Made by a program: the position numbers. A stretch of DNA of 49,842 nucleotides, counting the filler, from Fervidicoccaceae archaeon (GTDB lineage: Archaea; Thermoproteota; Thermoprotei_A; Sulfolobales; Fervidicoccaceae): the NCBI GenBank assembly GCA_038734945.1. It is 5 parts of 5 records of this genome, joined end to end, with 100 filler letters (N's around TTAATTAATTAA, not from the genome) between each part and the next. Parts side by side here need not be neighbours in the genome. Positions count along the whole stretch, not along the records: positions 1 to 17,858 come from JAVYOA010000004.1; positions 17,959 to 28,922 come from JAVYOA010000005.1; positions 29,023 to 37,996 come from JAVYOA010000006.1; 2 more parts are not named here. The stretch is one strand, 5' to 3'. This document shows, piece by piece, positions 15,001 to 30,000 of the stretch (the stretch's first letter is position 1; each line of letters opens with the position of its first letter).

Positions 15001-18000
15001 CTGCTTCATTGGGAAAAGCTTTCACTTTTGCCACCAGAATAAAAATTCATGAGAGCTTCCTTTGAAGCCCAATCTCTTCCTTTTGCTTTTATAATATTAT
15101 ATTTATGCTTCAACAGAAAGCATGATAGGGAAAATCATCTCGATGATAGGCAGATGAGGGCCTTCCTCACAGCATCAACTGCTGAGCTGGAGAATATGTA
15201 CAGAACTGGCTCAATCCCATATCCTCCCAGGTCAGCTATAGCATCGGGTGGGGTGCCCATCCTATTCAGAGCACTTTCGAAATCCTTGAGAAGCGAAATG
15301 AGATCAGAGTGCGGCCCTACTTCAAAAACAGCATAATTTTCCCTTTTCATAGCTTCAATGCATTCTCTGCTGTATTTTGCTACGAATGCTGCTGAGACCG
15401 ATGGAAATTTTCTTTTTGCAAGCAGAAGTATGCTTCCTGTATGTCTGCTCCCTCCCCTCACAGGTTCCCCAAGGGCCTCAACCCTTCCACCAGCATTGAC
15501 GAGCTTTCCCGAATATCCCACAACTTCCTCCACAGCTGTTGCTGAGAAGCTAGCTGCCACTATATTCGAGCCGACTTCAGGAATTATATCCGAAGCGTTT
15601 GGAACAGATCTAAGCAGCTCGAACGCAGCCTTTATCTCTTCCACAATTGGATCACTTTCAACTAGGAATATTTTCATGCATATGTCGCAGCTTGCTGGAA
15701 CATCCCGAGAGATCCTCTTATGAAAACTGCAGAGCTGCCCTGTTCTCAAAATAAAATTGAAATAGGAGCTCATCATGCTGAGGTACTCATCCCTTTTCCC
15801 CTCATACAGCTTGCTGGATGCCAGCTCGACTATTCTCCTGACATCCTCTTTCTTCAAGCCAATATTCTCCAGATCTTCATAGTAATCCTCCTCTGGCTTG
15901 CTCAGCAGCTTGTTTATCATTGGCTGGGATAGGCCCATGAGCTTTGCTGTTCTGAATTGCCCAACCCCCTTTTCAACAAGATTTTTTGCAATAAGCCCCC
16001 TGACTTCTGGAGCTACATGCTTGCTGACTAACTCATGGGGAAGCATTTCAGACATCTCATTTCCATTATCAAATAATTATTATCATAACTCGGTTATTAC
16101 TATTTCCCTATATGCTGAGGAAAAAAGCTGCTGTATAAAAGCATTTAAATCGAATGCTTTTCTTTTAATTTAGGGAAAAAAGCAATGGATCCAATGCTAT
16201 CCCTCATAGTTTTGCTGACATTCACCGGGATATTTGCTTCCCTCTTTCAGAGAATTGGGATAAATAGGGTAATCGGCTACCTATTCGGAGGAATAGTCGT
16301 CTATGCATTGAATCAATTTGGAAAAATATCGATAGACCTTCAGTACACAGAGCCGCTCAAGCAAATAGGGCTGATCCTCTTTTTCTTCGAAGTAGGCTCA
16401 ATGTTCAAGATTTCAGAGATGAAGCAGAATTTTACCAGGGTTCTCTCAGCAGAGCTCGTCGCTCTAACTGTCTATTGGATCAGCGCGAGCTTCCTCTCTT
16501 TTCTTCTCTTCTCCTCCGAGCTCGAAAAGCTCGTTCTATTCCTCCTTCTAACAAACTGCTCTACTGCATCCATTGTTGCTCTCCTGTCGAAAAGAGAATT
16601 TGAGAGCCTCATACCAATAGCTGCATTCCAAACATCGCTGGAGGACATGATTCAGTTCTTCCTCTTCTCCATGATTTTGACAGTTGGCTCCTCTCCTCTC
16701 ACGCTTCAAGATGTGGTTCTCTCCTTGATTAAGCTCTCCGGCTCTGCCCTCTTTCTCTACTTTCTCAGCACGAGAGCGCTTAGAAGGCTTCAAGGAAGCT
16801 CATTCCTAGGCAATCCAACCAACAAGTTTCTCCTAGCTCTGTTGATGGCTCTCCTATTCTCAACAATATCGGATGCGATGGGGCTCCCCTCCTTCTTCGG
16901 AGCATTCATAGCAGGTCTATCCTTCAATGCCTCAATAGGAAAGCAGGGAATAGGGGAAATGACTGAGGGGCTGTGGGAGCTTGGGCTTCTTTTCTATTTC
17001 TCCTCCATAGGCTCAGAGTTGGTCAGCATTCTATCCATGGAGAGCTGGATGTTCATGATAGGTGCTGGAATAGCTTTCGGCATCATGTCCTTTGTAATAA
17101 GATCTGTGGCACTATCTGTGGGAGAAATGATGGGAGGAGTGCCTCTGGAGAGCTCAGTGAAAATTTCATTTATACTCTCAACCCTGAGCGAGAATGGAAT
17201 CATTTTCACTGAAATGCTTGGCACGAAAGGAATAATTTCTCCATCCCTCACAGGAATTTCAATTACAGCAGTAATATCATCGCTTCTCCTTCAATCTCAG
17301 ATACTCAGCAGAACGGAAGCTCTATCATCTTTGGCTATCAGAGCTGTTCCAGGACCCCTTCTTGAGAAGATGGCCCACATCTCGAAGCTGTACTATCTCA
17401 GTGTTGATTCAGCACTTCGAATATTCACCATAACCTCCTATTTCTTCGCCTCTCTGCTTGCTATAACTTACTCAATAGATGCTCTGCAGGCTGTGCTCCA
17501 GAGAATAGAGCCAGGCAGCCTCGGCAAAAACGCCATATTAATAGCATCTCTTCTGAGGAGTGCAGGTATTGTTGCTGTACTGATAATTTTCTTCTTCTCA
17601 ATGAGATCCCTGTACAGGCTTAATCTGGAGGGAAGAGCGATTGGTGAGGAATCCTTGAGAAAGCTCAAAGGAGCAATAGGGATTCTCGCCTCAGCTATAG
17701 CAATTGCTGTACAGGCAAACATACTTAAGGACGTGCTGTCCAATTTTGGAATGCAGATAATTGGGCCGCTTGAGCTCATCATAGTATTCCTCTCCATTGC
17801 TGCTATTGCCCTCAATATATTCCTTGCCTGGAAATATAGGCCAAGAAATTCGGATGCANNNNNNNNNNNNNNNNNNNNNNNNNNNNNNNNNNNNNNNNNN
17901 NNTTAATTAATTAANNNNNNNNNNNNNNNNNNNNNNNNNNNNNNNNNNNNNNNNNNNNTCATCAAACGTCATCTTAATGACGCCGGATAACTCATATGGC

Positions 18001-27000: not shown

Positions 27001-30000
27001 TTTTGATTCTGTTAGGTTTAGCTCTTCTTGGTTTCGCTTTAGCTTTTCGGTTTAAAATTAATGTAAGAAATGGCGGGTCGTGTAACATATCACGTTATCA
27101 GGCAATGCTAGCACAGGTTCAGGACTCAGAAAGTGACTACTTATGAAAGTATACGATTGTCATGGCTATTTTGTAATGGAAGACGATAAAACCTACTTTT
27201 GCGAAAAAACTCCTCCGTCTCCTAACGCTCGATGGGTACAACTCTCGCTTTTTAACTCCATTTTCTGCGTTCCATCCTCAACCACACACGTGCGTGCTGA
27301 CTGCAAGAGACTATTTTAAGCTTACTAAGACATGTACGGCAAAACCGATATGTACATAATTCTGTTCATATTAGCTTTGGTAGCCACGCTATACGTTACG
27401 GGCTATTTGGGAAGTACCCAAAACTTGTTAATAATGATGATAGTAGCATTCATTGGTATCGTGCTATTAAATCAATACCAAGAAAATAAGATAATGGCGA
27501 AAGAAGTAGTAGCGTGACCTACCAATGTCCTTTTTTGTTGACGTAGGTGTATATGCGATTTTTTTCGTTTTAGCTAGTTCTACGGCTTATCTTCTAAAAT
27601 CTAGATTTCCCAATGTTAATGGGCGTCTGTTACAGGGCATTATAATCTTGGTTGCTGGTTACGGGTTGAGTGCGCTAGGTACAGGTATAGCTGGCGATAC
27701 AATAACGATAGGCGGATTACTTACTGCGATAACGGGAGCCTTCGCCCAAGTGGCTCAATCTGTTCCCGCACTGGGGTGGTTAAGATGATCACTAGCCTAG
27801 GTTTCTCAAACGCAAATCTTGACACAGTATCTATAGCGTCTCTTCTAATCGTTTATGTTATCTCATCGGCGTCCGCCACAGGTATTACGAAAGTATCTAA
27901 CCTAGGACATGGTTACTTTAGGCTCATTCAGTTCGCTGTGGCAAGCGTCATTACATATTTCATCTCGTTAGTTACCGAAACCGGTGGTATGCTATCGGGT
28001 CTGTTGACGGTATTGCTGGTAGAGGGTATTCTGAACTTCTTAGCTTACAAGCTTAATCTAGGCGCACTTGTGGATCCGGACTATTCAGGGTGAGGATATG
28101 GACAATGTCCTAGTAGCTTTCCTAGTGCTTCTAGTGTTTCTGGTAGTGTTATACGTTTACCTATACCCACGATCAAGCTATAACGTTTTTTCGCTGTGAA
28201 ACCATGGCTGAAATTATTCAAGATATCATAAAGATAGTTATTCAAGTAGCAAAGTATACGTTAGTACCACTCATCAAGCACACATTAGAAGGATTCTTTT
28301 ACGCCATGATGGCATTCTTACGTTATGCTAATGACATCACTAGGCGGTTAATGGTACTGATAAGATAGTACACATAAGATTATTAACATGATTTTCACAT
28401 ATGCGTGTCACGGTTGGCGCTCATTCGTTTTTGATTACAACGGAAGAACCAGACCACGGTTTGATATCCAGATGTTGCGGTAAACTGAATCCTGCATTTG
28501 TCAAGGCAATCGAGGAAGAAAACCTAGACTTTATCTACTTACCTAGATATGACCCTAACGCACCCGAGAGATGCGTTTACGTTACAATTGAACAGAATAC
28601 TAAGATCATTAAGGACTATTGGTTCTGCCACGTTTTTAACTTGCTACGAGAATATCGCAATTTCTTAGAAGTTCATTAACTGTCATAAGTCATGCTAAGT
28701 GATATTGTTAACGCTATTGAGTCCTTTGATAATGCCATCTCTGAGTATAGACAGAAAACTTATCAAGCGTGTGAGATACTTCCGCCAGTGAACTCTGTAC
28801 CCTCGCTATTCGCTAATCTTCCTGTTATTATCCTGTACATCATTACGTTACCCATACGTTTCCTTTTATGTCCATTACTTAACACAATAGGAAACCCATT
28901 ATGTTTGCTTTACAATTTAGTCNNNNNNNNNNNNNNNNNNNNNNNNNNNNNNNNNNNNNNNNNNNNTTAATTAATTAANNNNNNNNNNNNNNNNNNNNNN
29001 NNNNNNNNNNNNNNNNNNNNNNCTGGAAAGATCAGGGCCGCTCCAACCGCCATTATAAGAATTCCAAGAATGAAGAATGTCAGTTTTCCGGAGAAAATAA
29101 TATAGATGCTGATGGCGCTTCCTGCTACTATTATAGCTACTGAAGAAATATCTATTAATTTGTATACAAATGGCTTTGGTTTTATTTTTGTTTCGTATAT
29201 TTCCTGCGGCATACTGACCTCCTCCCCGACCTAAAGTGCGAGGGTTCTGGGAAGGTTTAGGGCTACATTCCCAGCTCTCGCTGGGTTCAGCCCTGCGCCT
29301 GGTCTCAAGCGCATTACCCCTACCCCATATAGAGCGGAGCTCGGGGCTATGGTTTTAGCTTTGAGCAGCATGTTGAATGCTCCTACCAGGTCTGCATTGA
29401 ACACATTGCTGTGTTTGTAGCACTTCAATAATCCTCTGTATATCCTCTTGTGCTCTTGGTTCTTCACTCTGCATAGTGGGCAGGTGGAAGAAGTGTTCTC
29501 TTCATTAACGAGCTCCACCTTTATACCGTACTCTTCTCCTACCTCGATCACTCTTCTCAACAAGTACCCGTATGTCCATGCGTGAACTACTTCGAAGTTG
29601 AGCTTAGAGTTCTTATTACCGTTTTGAGCTATGTATTTTGGATAGCCAACCAATACCCTTAATATGCCTCTCCGGTAGAGCCGCTCCATAGCGTTCCTCA
29701 CAGCCCAGTTAATGTAGTCCTTCACCTGCCTCCTCCACCTCTTGTACATTCTCCTGAGCCTCATGGAGGTCTTCAATCCATACCTGTTCAAGGTGGATTG
29801 ATAATCTGCTAACCTCTTTCTCCAGTAGAAGCTAATGCTCTTCAACGGTCTACCTGAAATAATTAGAGCTGAACCGTCCTCCATATACACAGCCAACAGG
29901 TTATTAATGCCTATGTCTATTCCAGCAACTTTATCTCCCAGAGGCTTTGCTGGAATTTTAACCCATTCATCCTTAACTATCTTCTCAGATACCTCGAATG

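Follow-up and report, generated by a model that had tools for sequence, protein, structure and literature searches.

The bottle-shaped viruses ABV, ABV2 and ABV3 (genus Bottigliavirus) have linear genomes of approximately 23 kb with a small gene within inverted terminal repeats. According to the ICTV profile, the terminal repeats of ABV, the sole cultured ampullavirus, are 590 b long, its ORF163 protein is named Cas4-like, and the virus is described as non-lytic. The ABV genes inside the repeat are ORF81b (128-373) and ORF81a (23442-23687).

The pyramid-forming proteins known as PVAPs, such as SIRV2 P98, STIV C92 and SSRV1 ORF21-98 (PHROG 8367), are encoded in rudivirus or turrivirus genomes and have about 90-100 aa. 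As described in PMC10791045 and PMC10551542, known PVAPs form pyramids in hosts of all three domains without further viral proteins. Here we describe an ampullavirus-like genome that encodes a homologue of these proteins.

Three contigs of one linear virus genome

The window (the whole stretch of DNA analysed, 49,842 nucleotides of joined contigs) includes C5 (17959-28922, JAVYOA010000005.1), C7 (38097-44015) and C8 (44116-49842), which were binned with a Fervidicoccaceae archaeon (genome G000). These contigs are parts of a single virus with a linear double-stranded DNA genome of approximately 23 kb, because proteins of all three, exact or at least 90% identical and including a 90-aa PVAP, occur together on single NCBI contigs of 22,257, 21,541 and 21,456 b, because the 3,091-b contig G406:C169 bridges C5 and C7 (C5:7977-10958, continuing into C7:1-375), and because three spacers of a Metallosphaera genome (G038), no more than 230 b apart in one CRISPR array, match C8, C5 and C7, respectively. 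The shared stretches of the earlier note (C5/C8 at 95%, C5/C7 at 79%) were reproduced: C5:1-195 and C8:546-740 are 95.4% identical on the same strand, and C5:10696-10963 resembles C7:1-268 at 78.8% nucleotide identity. C8 begins with 34 b that appear to be chimeric with contig C2 of the binned archaeal genome. The features of the virus are as follows.

17959..18153 (C5:1-195), no strand: probable inverted terminal repeat copy, inner 195 b, coding on the minus strand for the N-terminal part of an ORF103 copy
19993..20526, minus strand: Cas4-like nuclease, ABV ORF163 homologue (tblastn ABV2 4e-8, ABV 2e-6; PHROG 1706 'CRISPR/Cas system associated' 2.2e-9)
21661..21933, minus strand: ABV ORF105 homologue (tblastn 5e-15 to 2e-16 against ABV/ABV2/ABV3; PHROG 18951 4e-17)
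22238..23128, minus strand: glycosyltransferase, ABV ORF315 homologue, inverted relative to ABV (tblastn about 1e-30; PHROG 4356 1.1e-26)
24744..25214, minus strand: ABV ORF150b homologue (tblastn 1e-38 to 1e-40; PHROG 21550 4.5e-42)
25583..25990, plus strand: ABV ORF167 homologue (tblastn about 1e-29 to 6e-32; PHROG 19713 1.1e-33)
26212..26718, plus strand: ABV ORF174 homologue (tblastn; PHROG 21625 2.3e-42)
28692..28922, plus strand: ORF166-like gene, truncated at the C5 end and continuing as the first C7 gene (tblastn ABV 1e-10)
38135-38617, plus strand: ORF166-like gene on C7 (tblastn 1e-14; PHROGs 20060 and 21709 for the ORF166-/ORF346-like pair)
38605-39867, plus strand: ORF346-like gene on C7 (tblastn 2e-21; PHROGs as for the pair above)
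41313..43343, plus strand: ORF676, 676 aa, proline-rich with 45-nt repeats, ABV ORF470 counterpart by position (weak match, E 0.013)
43633..44013, plus strand: thymidylate kinase, truncated at the C7 end (Pfam PF02223 1.2e-8; ABV3 thymidylate kinase 6e-5)
44150..44855 (C8:35-740), no strand: probable inverted terminal repeat copy on C8, with a GC-rich structured element and ORF103; C8:546-740 matches C5:1-195
44150-44460, no strand: structured GC-rich element (62-68% GC) inside the C8 repeat copy
44498-44809, minus strand: ORF103, inside the C8 repeat copy
47266..49077, minus strand: polB, protein-primed family B polymerase (Pfam PF03175 6.8e-34; PHROG 1907 6.4e-60)

The map order was taken from the accession numbers of cluster members (for example, those of the ORF676 cluster) on NCBI contigs of 21-22 kb; this numbering points to the order C5(+) - C7(+) - reverse(C8). 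In one series, the accession endings are ...544 for ORF107 (C5), ...569 for ORF676 (C7), ...574 for ORF93 (C8) and ...577 for ORF262 (C8); in a second series, they are ...260 for ORF133, ...261 for ORF262, ...264 for ORF93 and ...268 for ORF676. The longer public contigs have the polB block past C7, with the Cas4-like gene at the other end, which contradicts the order polB (C8) - C5 - C7 that the earlier note had claimed after ABV. Counting against our explanation as a whole, one to three genes separate polB from ORF676 on different public contigs, and gene content there is therefore variable or differently called.

Given the order C5 - C7 - reverse(C8), the same-strand match of C5 and C8 places its two copies in inverted orientation at opposite genome ends. 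Therefore, the shared 195 b are best read as the inner portion of an approximately 0.7-kb inverted terminal repeat; the stretch had previously been taken to join C8 to C5, and terminal repeats had been reported as not found. Logan contigs exit the shared stretch both ways within the same runs, and one of them extends 240 b to the left of the C5 start. Two observations count against this reading: identity between the copies falls short of 100%, at 95% over the 195 b visible, and the assembly lacks the outer 545 b of the copy on the C5 side. Each repeat would harbor one GC-rich structured element and the small gene ORF103. The fold z-scores of this element are -8.3 (minus strand) and -6.3 (plus strand), and an Rfam search of it returned no family. 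Judging from homology, the genome is replicated by the protein-primed family B polymerase.

Local tblastn detected ABV homologues at 24-54% identity, seven on C5, ORF166 and ORF346 on C7, and polB on C8, in line with the nine of 44 proteins counted earlier. Across the 1.34-Mb genome, ampullavirus matches are confined to these three contigs. In a greedy ORF set (tblastn, E<=1e-3), 14 of 51 ORFs match at least one of ABV, ABV2 and ABV3, and 10 match all three; by comparison, 33 of 51 are common to ABV and ABV3, and the known three share 33-48 of 51 mutually. This difference bears out the previous description of a deeply divergent ampullavirus lineage. We see the virus as sister to the known Ampullaviridae, in a lineage of genus rank or higher. 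As in ABV, there are a protein-primed polB, a Cas4-like nuclease, a glycosyltransferase and a thymidylate kinase, together with the family-specific ORF105, ORF150b, ORF167, ORF174, ORF166 and ORF346, whose order and strands are largely kept. However, the polymerase block lies at the opposite genome end, the glycosyltransferase gene is inverted, and the interval from the Cas4-like gene to the ORF105 homologue, a small plus-strand island in ABV, holds a PVAP homologue. The polymerase counts against the kinship, being only 24% identical to those of ABVs and just as near to tectivirus-like or further protein-primed polymerases of unrelated viruses. Also on this side, Pfam (E<=0.01) detected neither the winged-helix nor the ribbon-helix-helix proteins that are listed for ABV.

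A virus that is not bottle-shaped, from a separate undescribed family with only a gene module in common with Ampullaviridae, is possible but rather unlikely. The low proportion of shared ORFs, the displaced polymerase block and its unrelated accessory genes would suit such a family, and our literature search found no identification of ABV structural proteins. However, the shared genes are those limited to ampullaviruses; a tblastn search of the ORF174 homologue against 50,697 phage records matched six, all of them ABV, ABV2 or ABV3. Furthermore, the plus-strand clusters ORF167-ORF174 and ORF166-ORF346 are kept with identical order and strands, and the genome size, the gene-bearing terminal repeats and the GC-rich element near the end are as in ABV. 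A separate family would be compatible with our best explanation, which makes no claim about virion shape.

The PVAP homologue and the exit of the virus

The gene in question lies on C5.

21112..21417 (C5:3154-3459), plus strand: PVAP homologue, longest frame 101 aa (PHROG 8367; probable start 21145)

The true start is probably 21145, which gives 90 aa: the NCBI version has this length, a variant begins there too, and GGTGA lies 5 nt upstream. The protein is a genuine full-length homologue of the PVAPs SIRV2 P98 and STIV C92. The open frame and the match to PHROG 8367 'pyramid forming protein' (E 1.3e-13, residues 23-100 on profile positions 14-91 of 96) are as originally described, and so is the hydrophobic N-terminal helix, which is transmembrane-grade (residues 16-34) and, as in known PVAPs, has a conserved acidic residue. 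A profile built from known PVAPs only gave 69 bits (positions 3-91 of 98 on residues 12-100); a Pfam search of the 101-aa protein gave no family at the cut-off. The alignment to the family is end-to-end and gapless, C-terminal part included, with 12 invariant columns. An AlphaFold2 model has low confidence (mean pLDDT 52) and indicates helices as a tendency only.

A tblastn search with the homologue against the 50,697 phage records (E<=10) matched 76 records. Among the 40 of these matches listed, all those with E<=0.2 are rudiviruses or STIV1 (best SSRV1 2e-6, STIV1 1e-6), those with E>=3 are terminase or helicase genes of Escherichia, Shigella and Krischvirus phages, and none is an ABV record. 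Six-frame profile searches found no PVAP homologue in ABV, ABV2 or ABV3 (best E 0.49). Both results agree with the earlier claim that matches occur only in rudiviruses and STIV, and a literature search found no report of PVAP in any ampullavirus-like genome. The homologue makes up a 50%-identity cluster by itself; only four PVAP clusters were found among 1.84 billion representative proteins, and it is 38, 31 and 28% identical to the other three.

From this homology, we infer a pyramid-mediated lytic exit. Late in infection, the PVAP homologue would enter the host membrane via its N-terminal helix and self-assemble into pyramids, which would pierce the S-layer, open and release virions built intracellularly. 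PMC10791045 offers precedents for pyramid exit by enveloped, intracellularly assembled viruses in SIFV (Lipothrixviridae), with its gp43-type pyramid protein, and SEV1, with a still unidentified one. Their pyramids are six-sided, and there is no sequence relationship. A homologue of SIFV gp43 was not found in this virus, ABV, ABV2 or ABV3 (best E 0.13-1.4). The non-lytic description of ABV counts against pyramid exit, and the identity of 26-38% to characterised PVAPs counts against pyramid formation, as does the low confidence of the AlphaFold2 model.

We regard it as unlikely that the protein is a real PVAP homologue without exit pyramids, whether holin-like, otherwise membrane-remodelling or an unimportant recent capture, in a virus released non-lytically as ABV is. 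Besides ABV itself, the divergence of the protein, which is greater than that of any other member of its family, and weak matches to holin families (PHROG 2073 0.0076, Pfam PF05106 0.14) speak for this. Nevertheless, the gapless homology spans the full functional length, including a C-terminal helical part that holins do not have, and the conserved motifs are retained. All seven variant sites listed for the gene fall on third positions of codons, every strain variant observed has the gene (8 members, up to 18 contigs), and known PVAPs, in the sources cited above, need no viral partner in hosts of three domains.

Host, binning and the virus as a whole

The host is most likely Metallosphaera (Sulfolobaceae), as judged from CRISPR spacers; ABV, in comparison, infects Acidianus. 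Six of the 282 spacers of the complete Metallosphaera genome G038 match the virus, covering C5, C7 and C8, and include the following.

44409..44446, plus strand: protospacer of a G038 spacer, 36/38 bases, TCA directly 5'
41550..41589, minus strand: protospacer of a G038 spacer, 38/40 bases, 5' flank CTA, not TCN/CCN
24443..24480, plus strand: protospacer of a G038 spacer, 31/38 bases, 25 consecutive, TCT directly 5'
43547..43590, plus strand: protospacer of a spacer in the second G038 array, 37/44 bases, CCT directly 5'

Five matches have E<=1e-5, compared with none across 20 non-viral stretches of G000 DNA that served as controls, and the best match to reversed viral sequence is 1.4e-4. TCN or CCN, the motifs of type I-A systems in Sulfolobales, stand directly 5' of five of the six protospacers against a background of 9.5% (P 4e-5). 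The Cas1 of G038 matches, at 100% identity, a Metallosphaera protein that carries the name Cas1, and among 325 genomes of the order, array-borne matches occur in G038 only. The best spacers have two mismatches and others 7-9, which indicates that G038 met relatives of the virus, not necessarily this strain.

Proteins of the virus occur in NCBI bins labelled Metallosphaera, Sulfolobaceae, Saccharolobus, Thermoplasmata, Thermoplasmatales, Fervidicoccaceae, Thermoproteota, Nitrososphaeria, Conexivisphaerales and Ignisphaera. Because bins of at least 10 taxa contain this one virus, binning is uninformative on the host. The presence of the virus in the Fervidicoccaceae bin would be a binning artefact. 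The Fervidicoccaceae-like host proposed earlier, which would extend ampullaviruses and PVAP beyond Sulfolobaceae, is thus very improbable, even though C5, C7 and C8 are all in the bin and two NCBI bins with the virus are labelled Fervidicoccaceae archaeon. Metallosphaera and Sulfolobaceae are the most frequent labels. G000 has no CRISPR array, as stated before, and no Cas1, and so offers no link. Its seven family relatives, in which the earlier search also saw nothing spacer-like for C5, yield no significant match, only two of 29 nt at E 0.006-0.007, the level of chance matches elsewhere, whereas six spacers of a Metallosphaera genome match, five of them beside a TCN/CCN motif. In addition, the viral GC content is 39-40%, compared with 42-45% in the large contigs.

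That the link between PVAP and ampullavirus genes arose as a chimera during assembly, when part of a rudivirus or STIV-like genome was misjoined into C5, is scarcely credible: although strain mixture is evident and the C8 start looks chimeric, 10 NCBI contigs encode the exact 90-aa protein and the longest of them (22,257 b) also carries C5, C7 and C8 genes, independent Logan contigs from several studies span the gene and its flanks (one of 1,040 b, in two runs, from the Cas4-like gene start through the whole PVAP gene), C5 has no other rudivirus or turrivirus gene, and identity to any known PVAP is just 28-38%.

The PVAP and ampullavirus genes on these contigs, and their reading as a divergent ampullavirus-like genome with a PVAP homologue, thus outlast the earlier note, whose gene and contig order, lack of terminal repeats and Fervidicoccaceae host do not. 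Taken whole, an ampullavirus-like virus of approximately 23 kb with inverted terminal repeats, a PVAP-type lytic exit and a Metallosphaera host is the best explanation, and we hold it to be reasonably probable. Like known PVAPs, its homologue belongs to a virus of a likely Sulfolobaceae host, as ABV also is; unlike them, it is encoded in an ampullavirus-like genome, and pyramid formation is here a prediction. Such an exit would be lytic, in contrast to the non-lytic release described for ABV.

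Kinship of the viral contigs with the Ampullaviridae

Contigs C5, C7 and C8 are the pieces of a real, nearly complete and deeply divergent ampullavirus-like virus that carries a genuine gene for the P98/C92-type pyramid protein (PVAP). The bin that contains them measures 1.34 Mb in 9 contigs, with a completeness of 99.95%, and the window comprises a part of C4 followed by C5 (window 17959-28922), C6, C7 (38097-44015) and C8 (44116-49842). The GC contents of C5, C7 and C8 are 39-40%, compared with 42-45% in the large contigs.

In a local tblastn search (E<=1e-3), 14 of the 51 greedy ORFs of C5, C7 and C8 matched at least one of the known viruses ABV, ABV2 and ABV3, and 10 of the 51 matched all three, with identities of 24-54%. 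The family-specific ORF105, ORF150b, ORF167, ORF174, ORF166 and ORF346 have homologues in all three viruses at E-values of 1e-10 to 1e-40. The best E-values were 1e-40 for ORF150b, 5e-37 for ORF174, 6e-32 for ORF167 and 1e-30 for the glycosyltransferase, followed by 2e-21 for ORF346, 2e-16 for ORF105 and 1e-14 for ORF166. The ORF174 homologue matched six phage records, all six from ampullaviruses, and had no match in the 400 other phylum genomes searched; in reverse searches, all ampullavirus-like genes of the bin were located on C5, C7 and C8. According to the ICTV profile of the Ampullaviridae, a polymerase, a glycosyltransferase, a thymidylate kinase, a Cas4-like nuclease, and wHTH and RHH DNA-binding proteins are conserved in all members. 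The first four are all present in the virus. Its polymerase is of the protein-primed type (PF03175, 6.8e-34) and is 24% identical to that of ABV, and the polymerases of many unrelated viruses are equally near. For the wHTH and RHH proteins, no Pfam match was obtained at E<=0.01 among 45 ORFs, in a class of small proteins that is easily missed.

Whereas ABV has 48 of 51 ORFs in common with ABV2 and 33 with ABV3, the virus studied here shares only 14 of 51 and thus falls short of the level of the accepted members. This comparison, which agrees with the deep divergence claimed in the earlier note, places the virus well outside the ABV/ABV2/ABV3 group and outside their genus.

Related contigs were observed in two other bins of the order: G406:C169 (locus L019) is 85% identical to C5/C7, G406:C184 (locus L044) is 68-77% identical to the polymerase region of C8, and G633:C270 (locus L020) encodes an ORF150b-like protein with 48% amino-acid identity. 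Therefore, the lineage has several members. An ORF93-like protein also occurs on a 1,674-b contig of an isolate assembly labelled Staphylococcus haemolyticus. Manure, wastewater and soil metagenome runs contain ~70% of the sampled C5 words, equal to hot-spring runs; such labels are odd for the virus of a thermoacidophile, and mislabelling or carry-over is possible.

The 676-aa protein of C7 (repeats at window 42576-42712 and 42968-43057) contains proline-rich repeats on a 9-nt grid and two 45-nt tandem units, and the 194-aa protein of C7 contains three 24-nt units (window 40315-40386). Such repeats are characteristic of surface or fibre proteins.

Contig C6 (window 29023-37996) is host-like and non-viral, and neither tblastn nor reverse searches yielded ampullavirus matches in it. 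It is 83% identical to the end of C2 over 1,820 b, its other end is 76% identical to the last 338 b of C2, and it shares a 127-b exact overlap with the end of C3. It has the appearance of a host strain variant or of a branch in the host's assembly graph. The first 34 b of C8 (window 44116-44149) match host C2:237515-237548 at 33 of 34 bases, within coding-looking sequence, and probably form a chimeric end of the contig, not an integration junction.

The pyramid protein gene

The PVAP gene is annotated as follows.

Window 21112-21417 (C5:3154-3459), plus strand: PVAP homologue, open over 101 codons.
Window 21145-21417, plus strand: gene from the probable true start, the ATG at 21145, 90 aa.

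The start is probably at 21145 because the protein is 90 residues long in NCBI, a strain variant with differing letters starts at the same point, and GGTGA lies 5 nt upstream of this ATG. The gene is part of a small island on the plus strand, flanked by the Cas4-like and ORF105 genes on the minus strand, whereas ABV has ORF247, ORF53ab and the thymidylate kinase in this position.

The protein aligns with almost all of the profile of PHROG 8367, 'pyramid forming protein' (E 1.3e-13), and no Pfam family scored above its own cut-off. An exhaustive phmmer search of 1.84 billion representatives returned four proteins, one from its own cluster (96%) and three further PVAPs with identities of 38, 31 and 28% (E 3.8e-11, 1.6e-7 and 2e-6). 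One of the three has the same sequence as the pyramid protein annotated in SSRV1, and another represents the SIRV/STIV type. A profile of the known PVAPs, from which the window protein was left out, scored 69 bits and aligned its positions 3-91 of 98 with residues 12-100 without a gap, and the family alignment contains 12 invariant columns. The homology to characterised PVAPs found by these searches thus extends over the full length. A word-based protein search returned only the protein's own 90% cluster. Among 40 of the 76 tblastn matches in the phage collection, those at E<=0.2 were rudiviruses or STIV1 only, and no ABV record appeared. The searches uphold the presence of a PVAP homologue on C5, and they equally bear out its reported lack in ABV, ABV2 and ABV3, of which all six-frame ORFs of >=30 aa gave a best E of 0.49 against the PVAP profile with filters off. 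A homologue of SIFV gp43, an unrelated pyramid protein, was absent from all three and from the virus itself. Scans of IMG/VR retrieved no relatives of the PVAP or of the ORF174 homologue, and a genome-contig scan with the PVAP retrieved none. Seventeen weak matches outside the bin (401 phylum genomes, E 4e-4 to 1e-2), mostly in proteins of ~1,150 aa, were rejected as chance helical matches; the known-PVAP profile gave them E-values of at least 0.055.

The protein is small (90-101 aa; the PVAP type is ~10 kDa) and has one predicted N-terminal transmembrane helix. Its 19-residue Kyte-Doolittle maximum, 1.99 at residues 16-34, is at transmembrane level, compared with 3.07 for SSRV1 and 2.17 for the SIRV type. 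An AlphaFold2 model of low confidence (mean pLDDT 52, pTM 0.28) is all-helical (3-30, 35-67 and 73-89); the published scheme gives PVAPs an alpha-helical C-terminal part of three helices. A four-copy complex prediction scored 0.00 and has no bearing on self-assembly either way. All seven variant sites listed for the gene, from four runs with 466 further sites outside this set, are at third codon positions, as purifying selection would give.

Genome map and termini

Our map is based on the accession order on longer NCBI contigs, that is, on their lengths and protein accessions and not on a reading of their sequences. A contig of 22,257 b includes the PVAP of 90 aa and the ORF139 and ORF174 homologues of C5, all three as exact copies, together with relatives at >=90% of ORF262 and ORF93 (C8) and ORF676 (C7), and similar gene sets occur on contigs of 21,541, 21,456 and 16,479 b. 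In one accession series, ORF107 (C5) is followed by ORF676, ORF93 and ORF262 (544, 569, 574 and 577); in a second, ORF133, ORF262, ORF93 and ORF676 take 260, 261, 264 and 268; and on the 22,257-b contig, ORF676, ORF93 and ORF262 take 674, 677 and 680. Every series has ORF676 beyond the polymerase, on the side opposite ORF262. Therefore, the order is C5(+) - C7(+) - reverse(C8), and the ABV-like order C8 - C5 - C7 proposed in the earlier note is wrong. The step from C5 to C7 is bridged independently by the 3,091-b contig G406:C169 (85-87% identity). In this map, the polymerase block and the Cas4-like gene are at opposite ends. The pieces amount to ~22.9 kb plus a short gap, and the public contigs measure 21.5-22.3 kb; ampullaviruses have linear dsDNA of ~23 kb bounded by inverted terminal repeats.

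C5:1-195 and C8:546-740 are 95% identical on the same strand. Because C8 is reversed in the map, the two 195-b copies are inverted and lie at two ends, so that a genome in which the earlier note had found no terminal repeats can now be read as having an inverted repeat at both ends. We consider it likely that the shared stretch is the inner part of an inverted terminal repeat of about C8:35-740, with the outer part of its second copy outside the sequence seen, although the two copies differ by 5%. The assembler would have produced one copy of the repeat only, that in C8. In other runs, contigs exit the shared stretch both to C5:196 and to C8:741, and one contig reaches 240 b to the left of C5. 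Strain variation breaks up the contigs of these runs, and among the records listed none covers C5 in full. ABV has terminal repeats of 590 b with a gene inside them; the putative C8 repeat contains ORF103 and the following element.

Window 44150-44460 (C8:35-345), both strands folded: GC-rich element, 62-68% GC in a virus of 39% GC, no conserved ORF.

Compared with shuffled sequences, the element has fold z-scores of -8.3 (minus strand) and -6.3 (plus strand), and it is targeted by a Metallosphaera spacer. No Rfam family was found in C5-C8 at E<=0.1, and blastn of the left end of C8 revealed no similarity to ABV, ABV2 or ABV3. The only end-proximal GC-rich patch of ABV (601-750) is in a matching place, and the ICTV profile puts a putative packaging RNA at the terminal GC-rich patch of ABV. 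We regard the C8 element as a candidate structured RNA.

Host and predicted exit

The bin contains neither Cas1 nor CRISPR arrays, the latter as already noted. The same virus is present in NCBI bins labelled Metallosphaera sp. (several), Sulfolobaceae, Saccharolobus sp., Thermoplasmata, Thermoplasmatales, Fervidicoccaceae (two), Thermoproteota, Nitrososphaeria, Conexivisphaerales and Ignisphaera. Because these are at least 10 unrelated taxa, binning is uninformative on the host.

When 325 genomes of the same GTDB order were searched contig by contig, all significant short matches, besides the viral contigs of G406 and G633, were in G038, a complete Metallosphaera genome, within two large CRISPR arrays flanking a Cas1 gene. 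Six of its 282 spacers match the virus.

C8:294-331: protospacer, 36/38 bases.
C7:3454-3493: protospacer, 38/40 bases.
C5:6485-6522: protospacer, 31/38 bases, 25 consecutive.
C7:5451-5494: protospacer, 37/44 bases.
C5:5014-5052: protospacer, 30/39 bases.
C5:4749-4789 (window 22707-22747): protospacer in the glycosyltransferase gene, 33/41 bases, 8 mismatches, mostly every third base.

The spacers for the first three lie within 230 b of each other in one array, and the every-third-base mismatches of the last are the signature of a spacer taken from a coding region of a diverged relative. With the viral sequence reversed, the best E was 1.4e-4, and 20 random 22.6-kb pieces of the bin's large contigs gave no match at E<=1e-5, versus five for the virus. 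Directly 5' of five of the six protospacers (crRNA sense) is TCN or CCN, versus 9.5% in the background (P 4e-5); Sulfolobales type I-A systems use these motifs. The Cas1 of G038 is 100% identical to an NCBI protein named Cas1 of Metallosphaera. Because of the six spacers, the flanking motifs, the controls and this Cas1, we are fairly confident that the host belongs to Metallosphaera rather than to the Fervidicoccaceae, which the earlier note had named as a possible host; the spacers, with at least two mismatches each, would record contact with relatives and not with this very strain. Spacer-like matches in G632, G355, G629 and G641 were outside repeat arrays and were rejected, and a genome-contig scan for the G038 CRISPR repeat returned 0 matches and no further arrays. 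Binning-based host calls for this virus are wrong, which is a caution for the method.

According to two reviews, the SIRV2 and STIV homologue alone builds sevenfold pyramids, which break the S-layer and open to release virions, and pyramids also form from PVAP alone in bacteria and yeast (PMC10791045, PMC10551542). Because that homologue suffices alone, the C5 PVAP would be expected to work in the same manner, with no other viral genes needed. The enveloped viruses SIFV and SEV1, which are assembled in the cytoplasm, use pyramids, as one review describes (PMC10791045), so an envelope is no obstacle for an ampullavirus-like particle. Pyramid exit would make the virus lytic, whereas the ICTV profile describes the release of ABV, and ampullavirus exit generally, only as 'without apparent lysis'. 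Thus, of the exit route first proposed, the gene and its family stand, and pyramid exit itself is a well-motivated prediction from homology.

Full-text literature searches on ampullavirus, bottle-shaped virus, pyramid, Metallosphaera and Fervidicoccus topics found no report of an ampullavirus with a PVAP or of one that infects Metallosphaera. In the sections consulted, the 2023 and 2024 reviews assign P98/C92-type PVAPs to the Rudiviridae and Turriviridae only (PMC10791045, PMC10551542), the 2023 Turriviridae review refers to C92 homologues in four metagenomic clades whose viral context is unknown, and a 2020 preprint on Italian isolates presents the Metallosphaera rod-shaped virus MRV1 as lacking a P98 homologue. 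The C5 type may be among those four clades. The sequences are already public in unannotated bins, and our reading of them appears to be new.

The PVAP-bearing genome, which points to Metallosphaera as host, would extend the pyramid exit system to a third and very different virus architecture, and its PVAP, as the most divergent member of the family, helps to find residues important in pyramid assembly. We give an even chance to the broader reading that the virus represents the first ampullavirus-like lineage whose exit can be identified, a lytic, pyramid-forming relative of the non-lytic bottle-shaped viruses with Metallosphaera as its host, and that the PVAP gene would be an egress cassette, sufficient by itself, that has spread among three or more unrelated groups of Sulfolobaceae viruses (rods, turreted icosahedra and ampullavirus-like viruses) and is able to switch non-lytic release to lysis.
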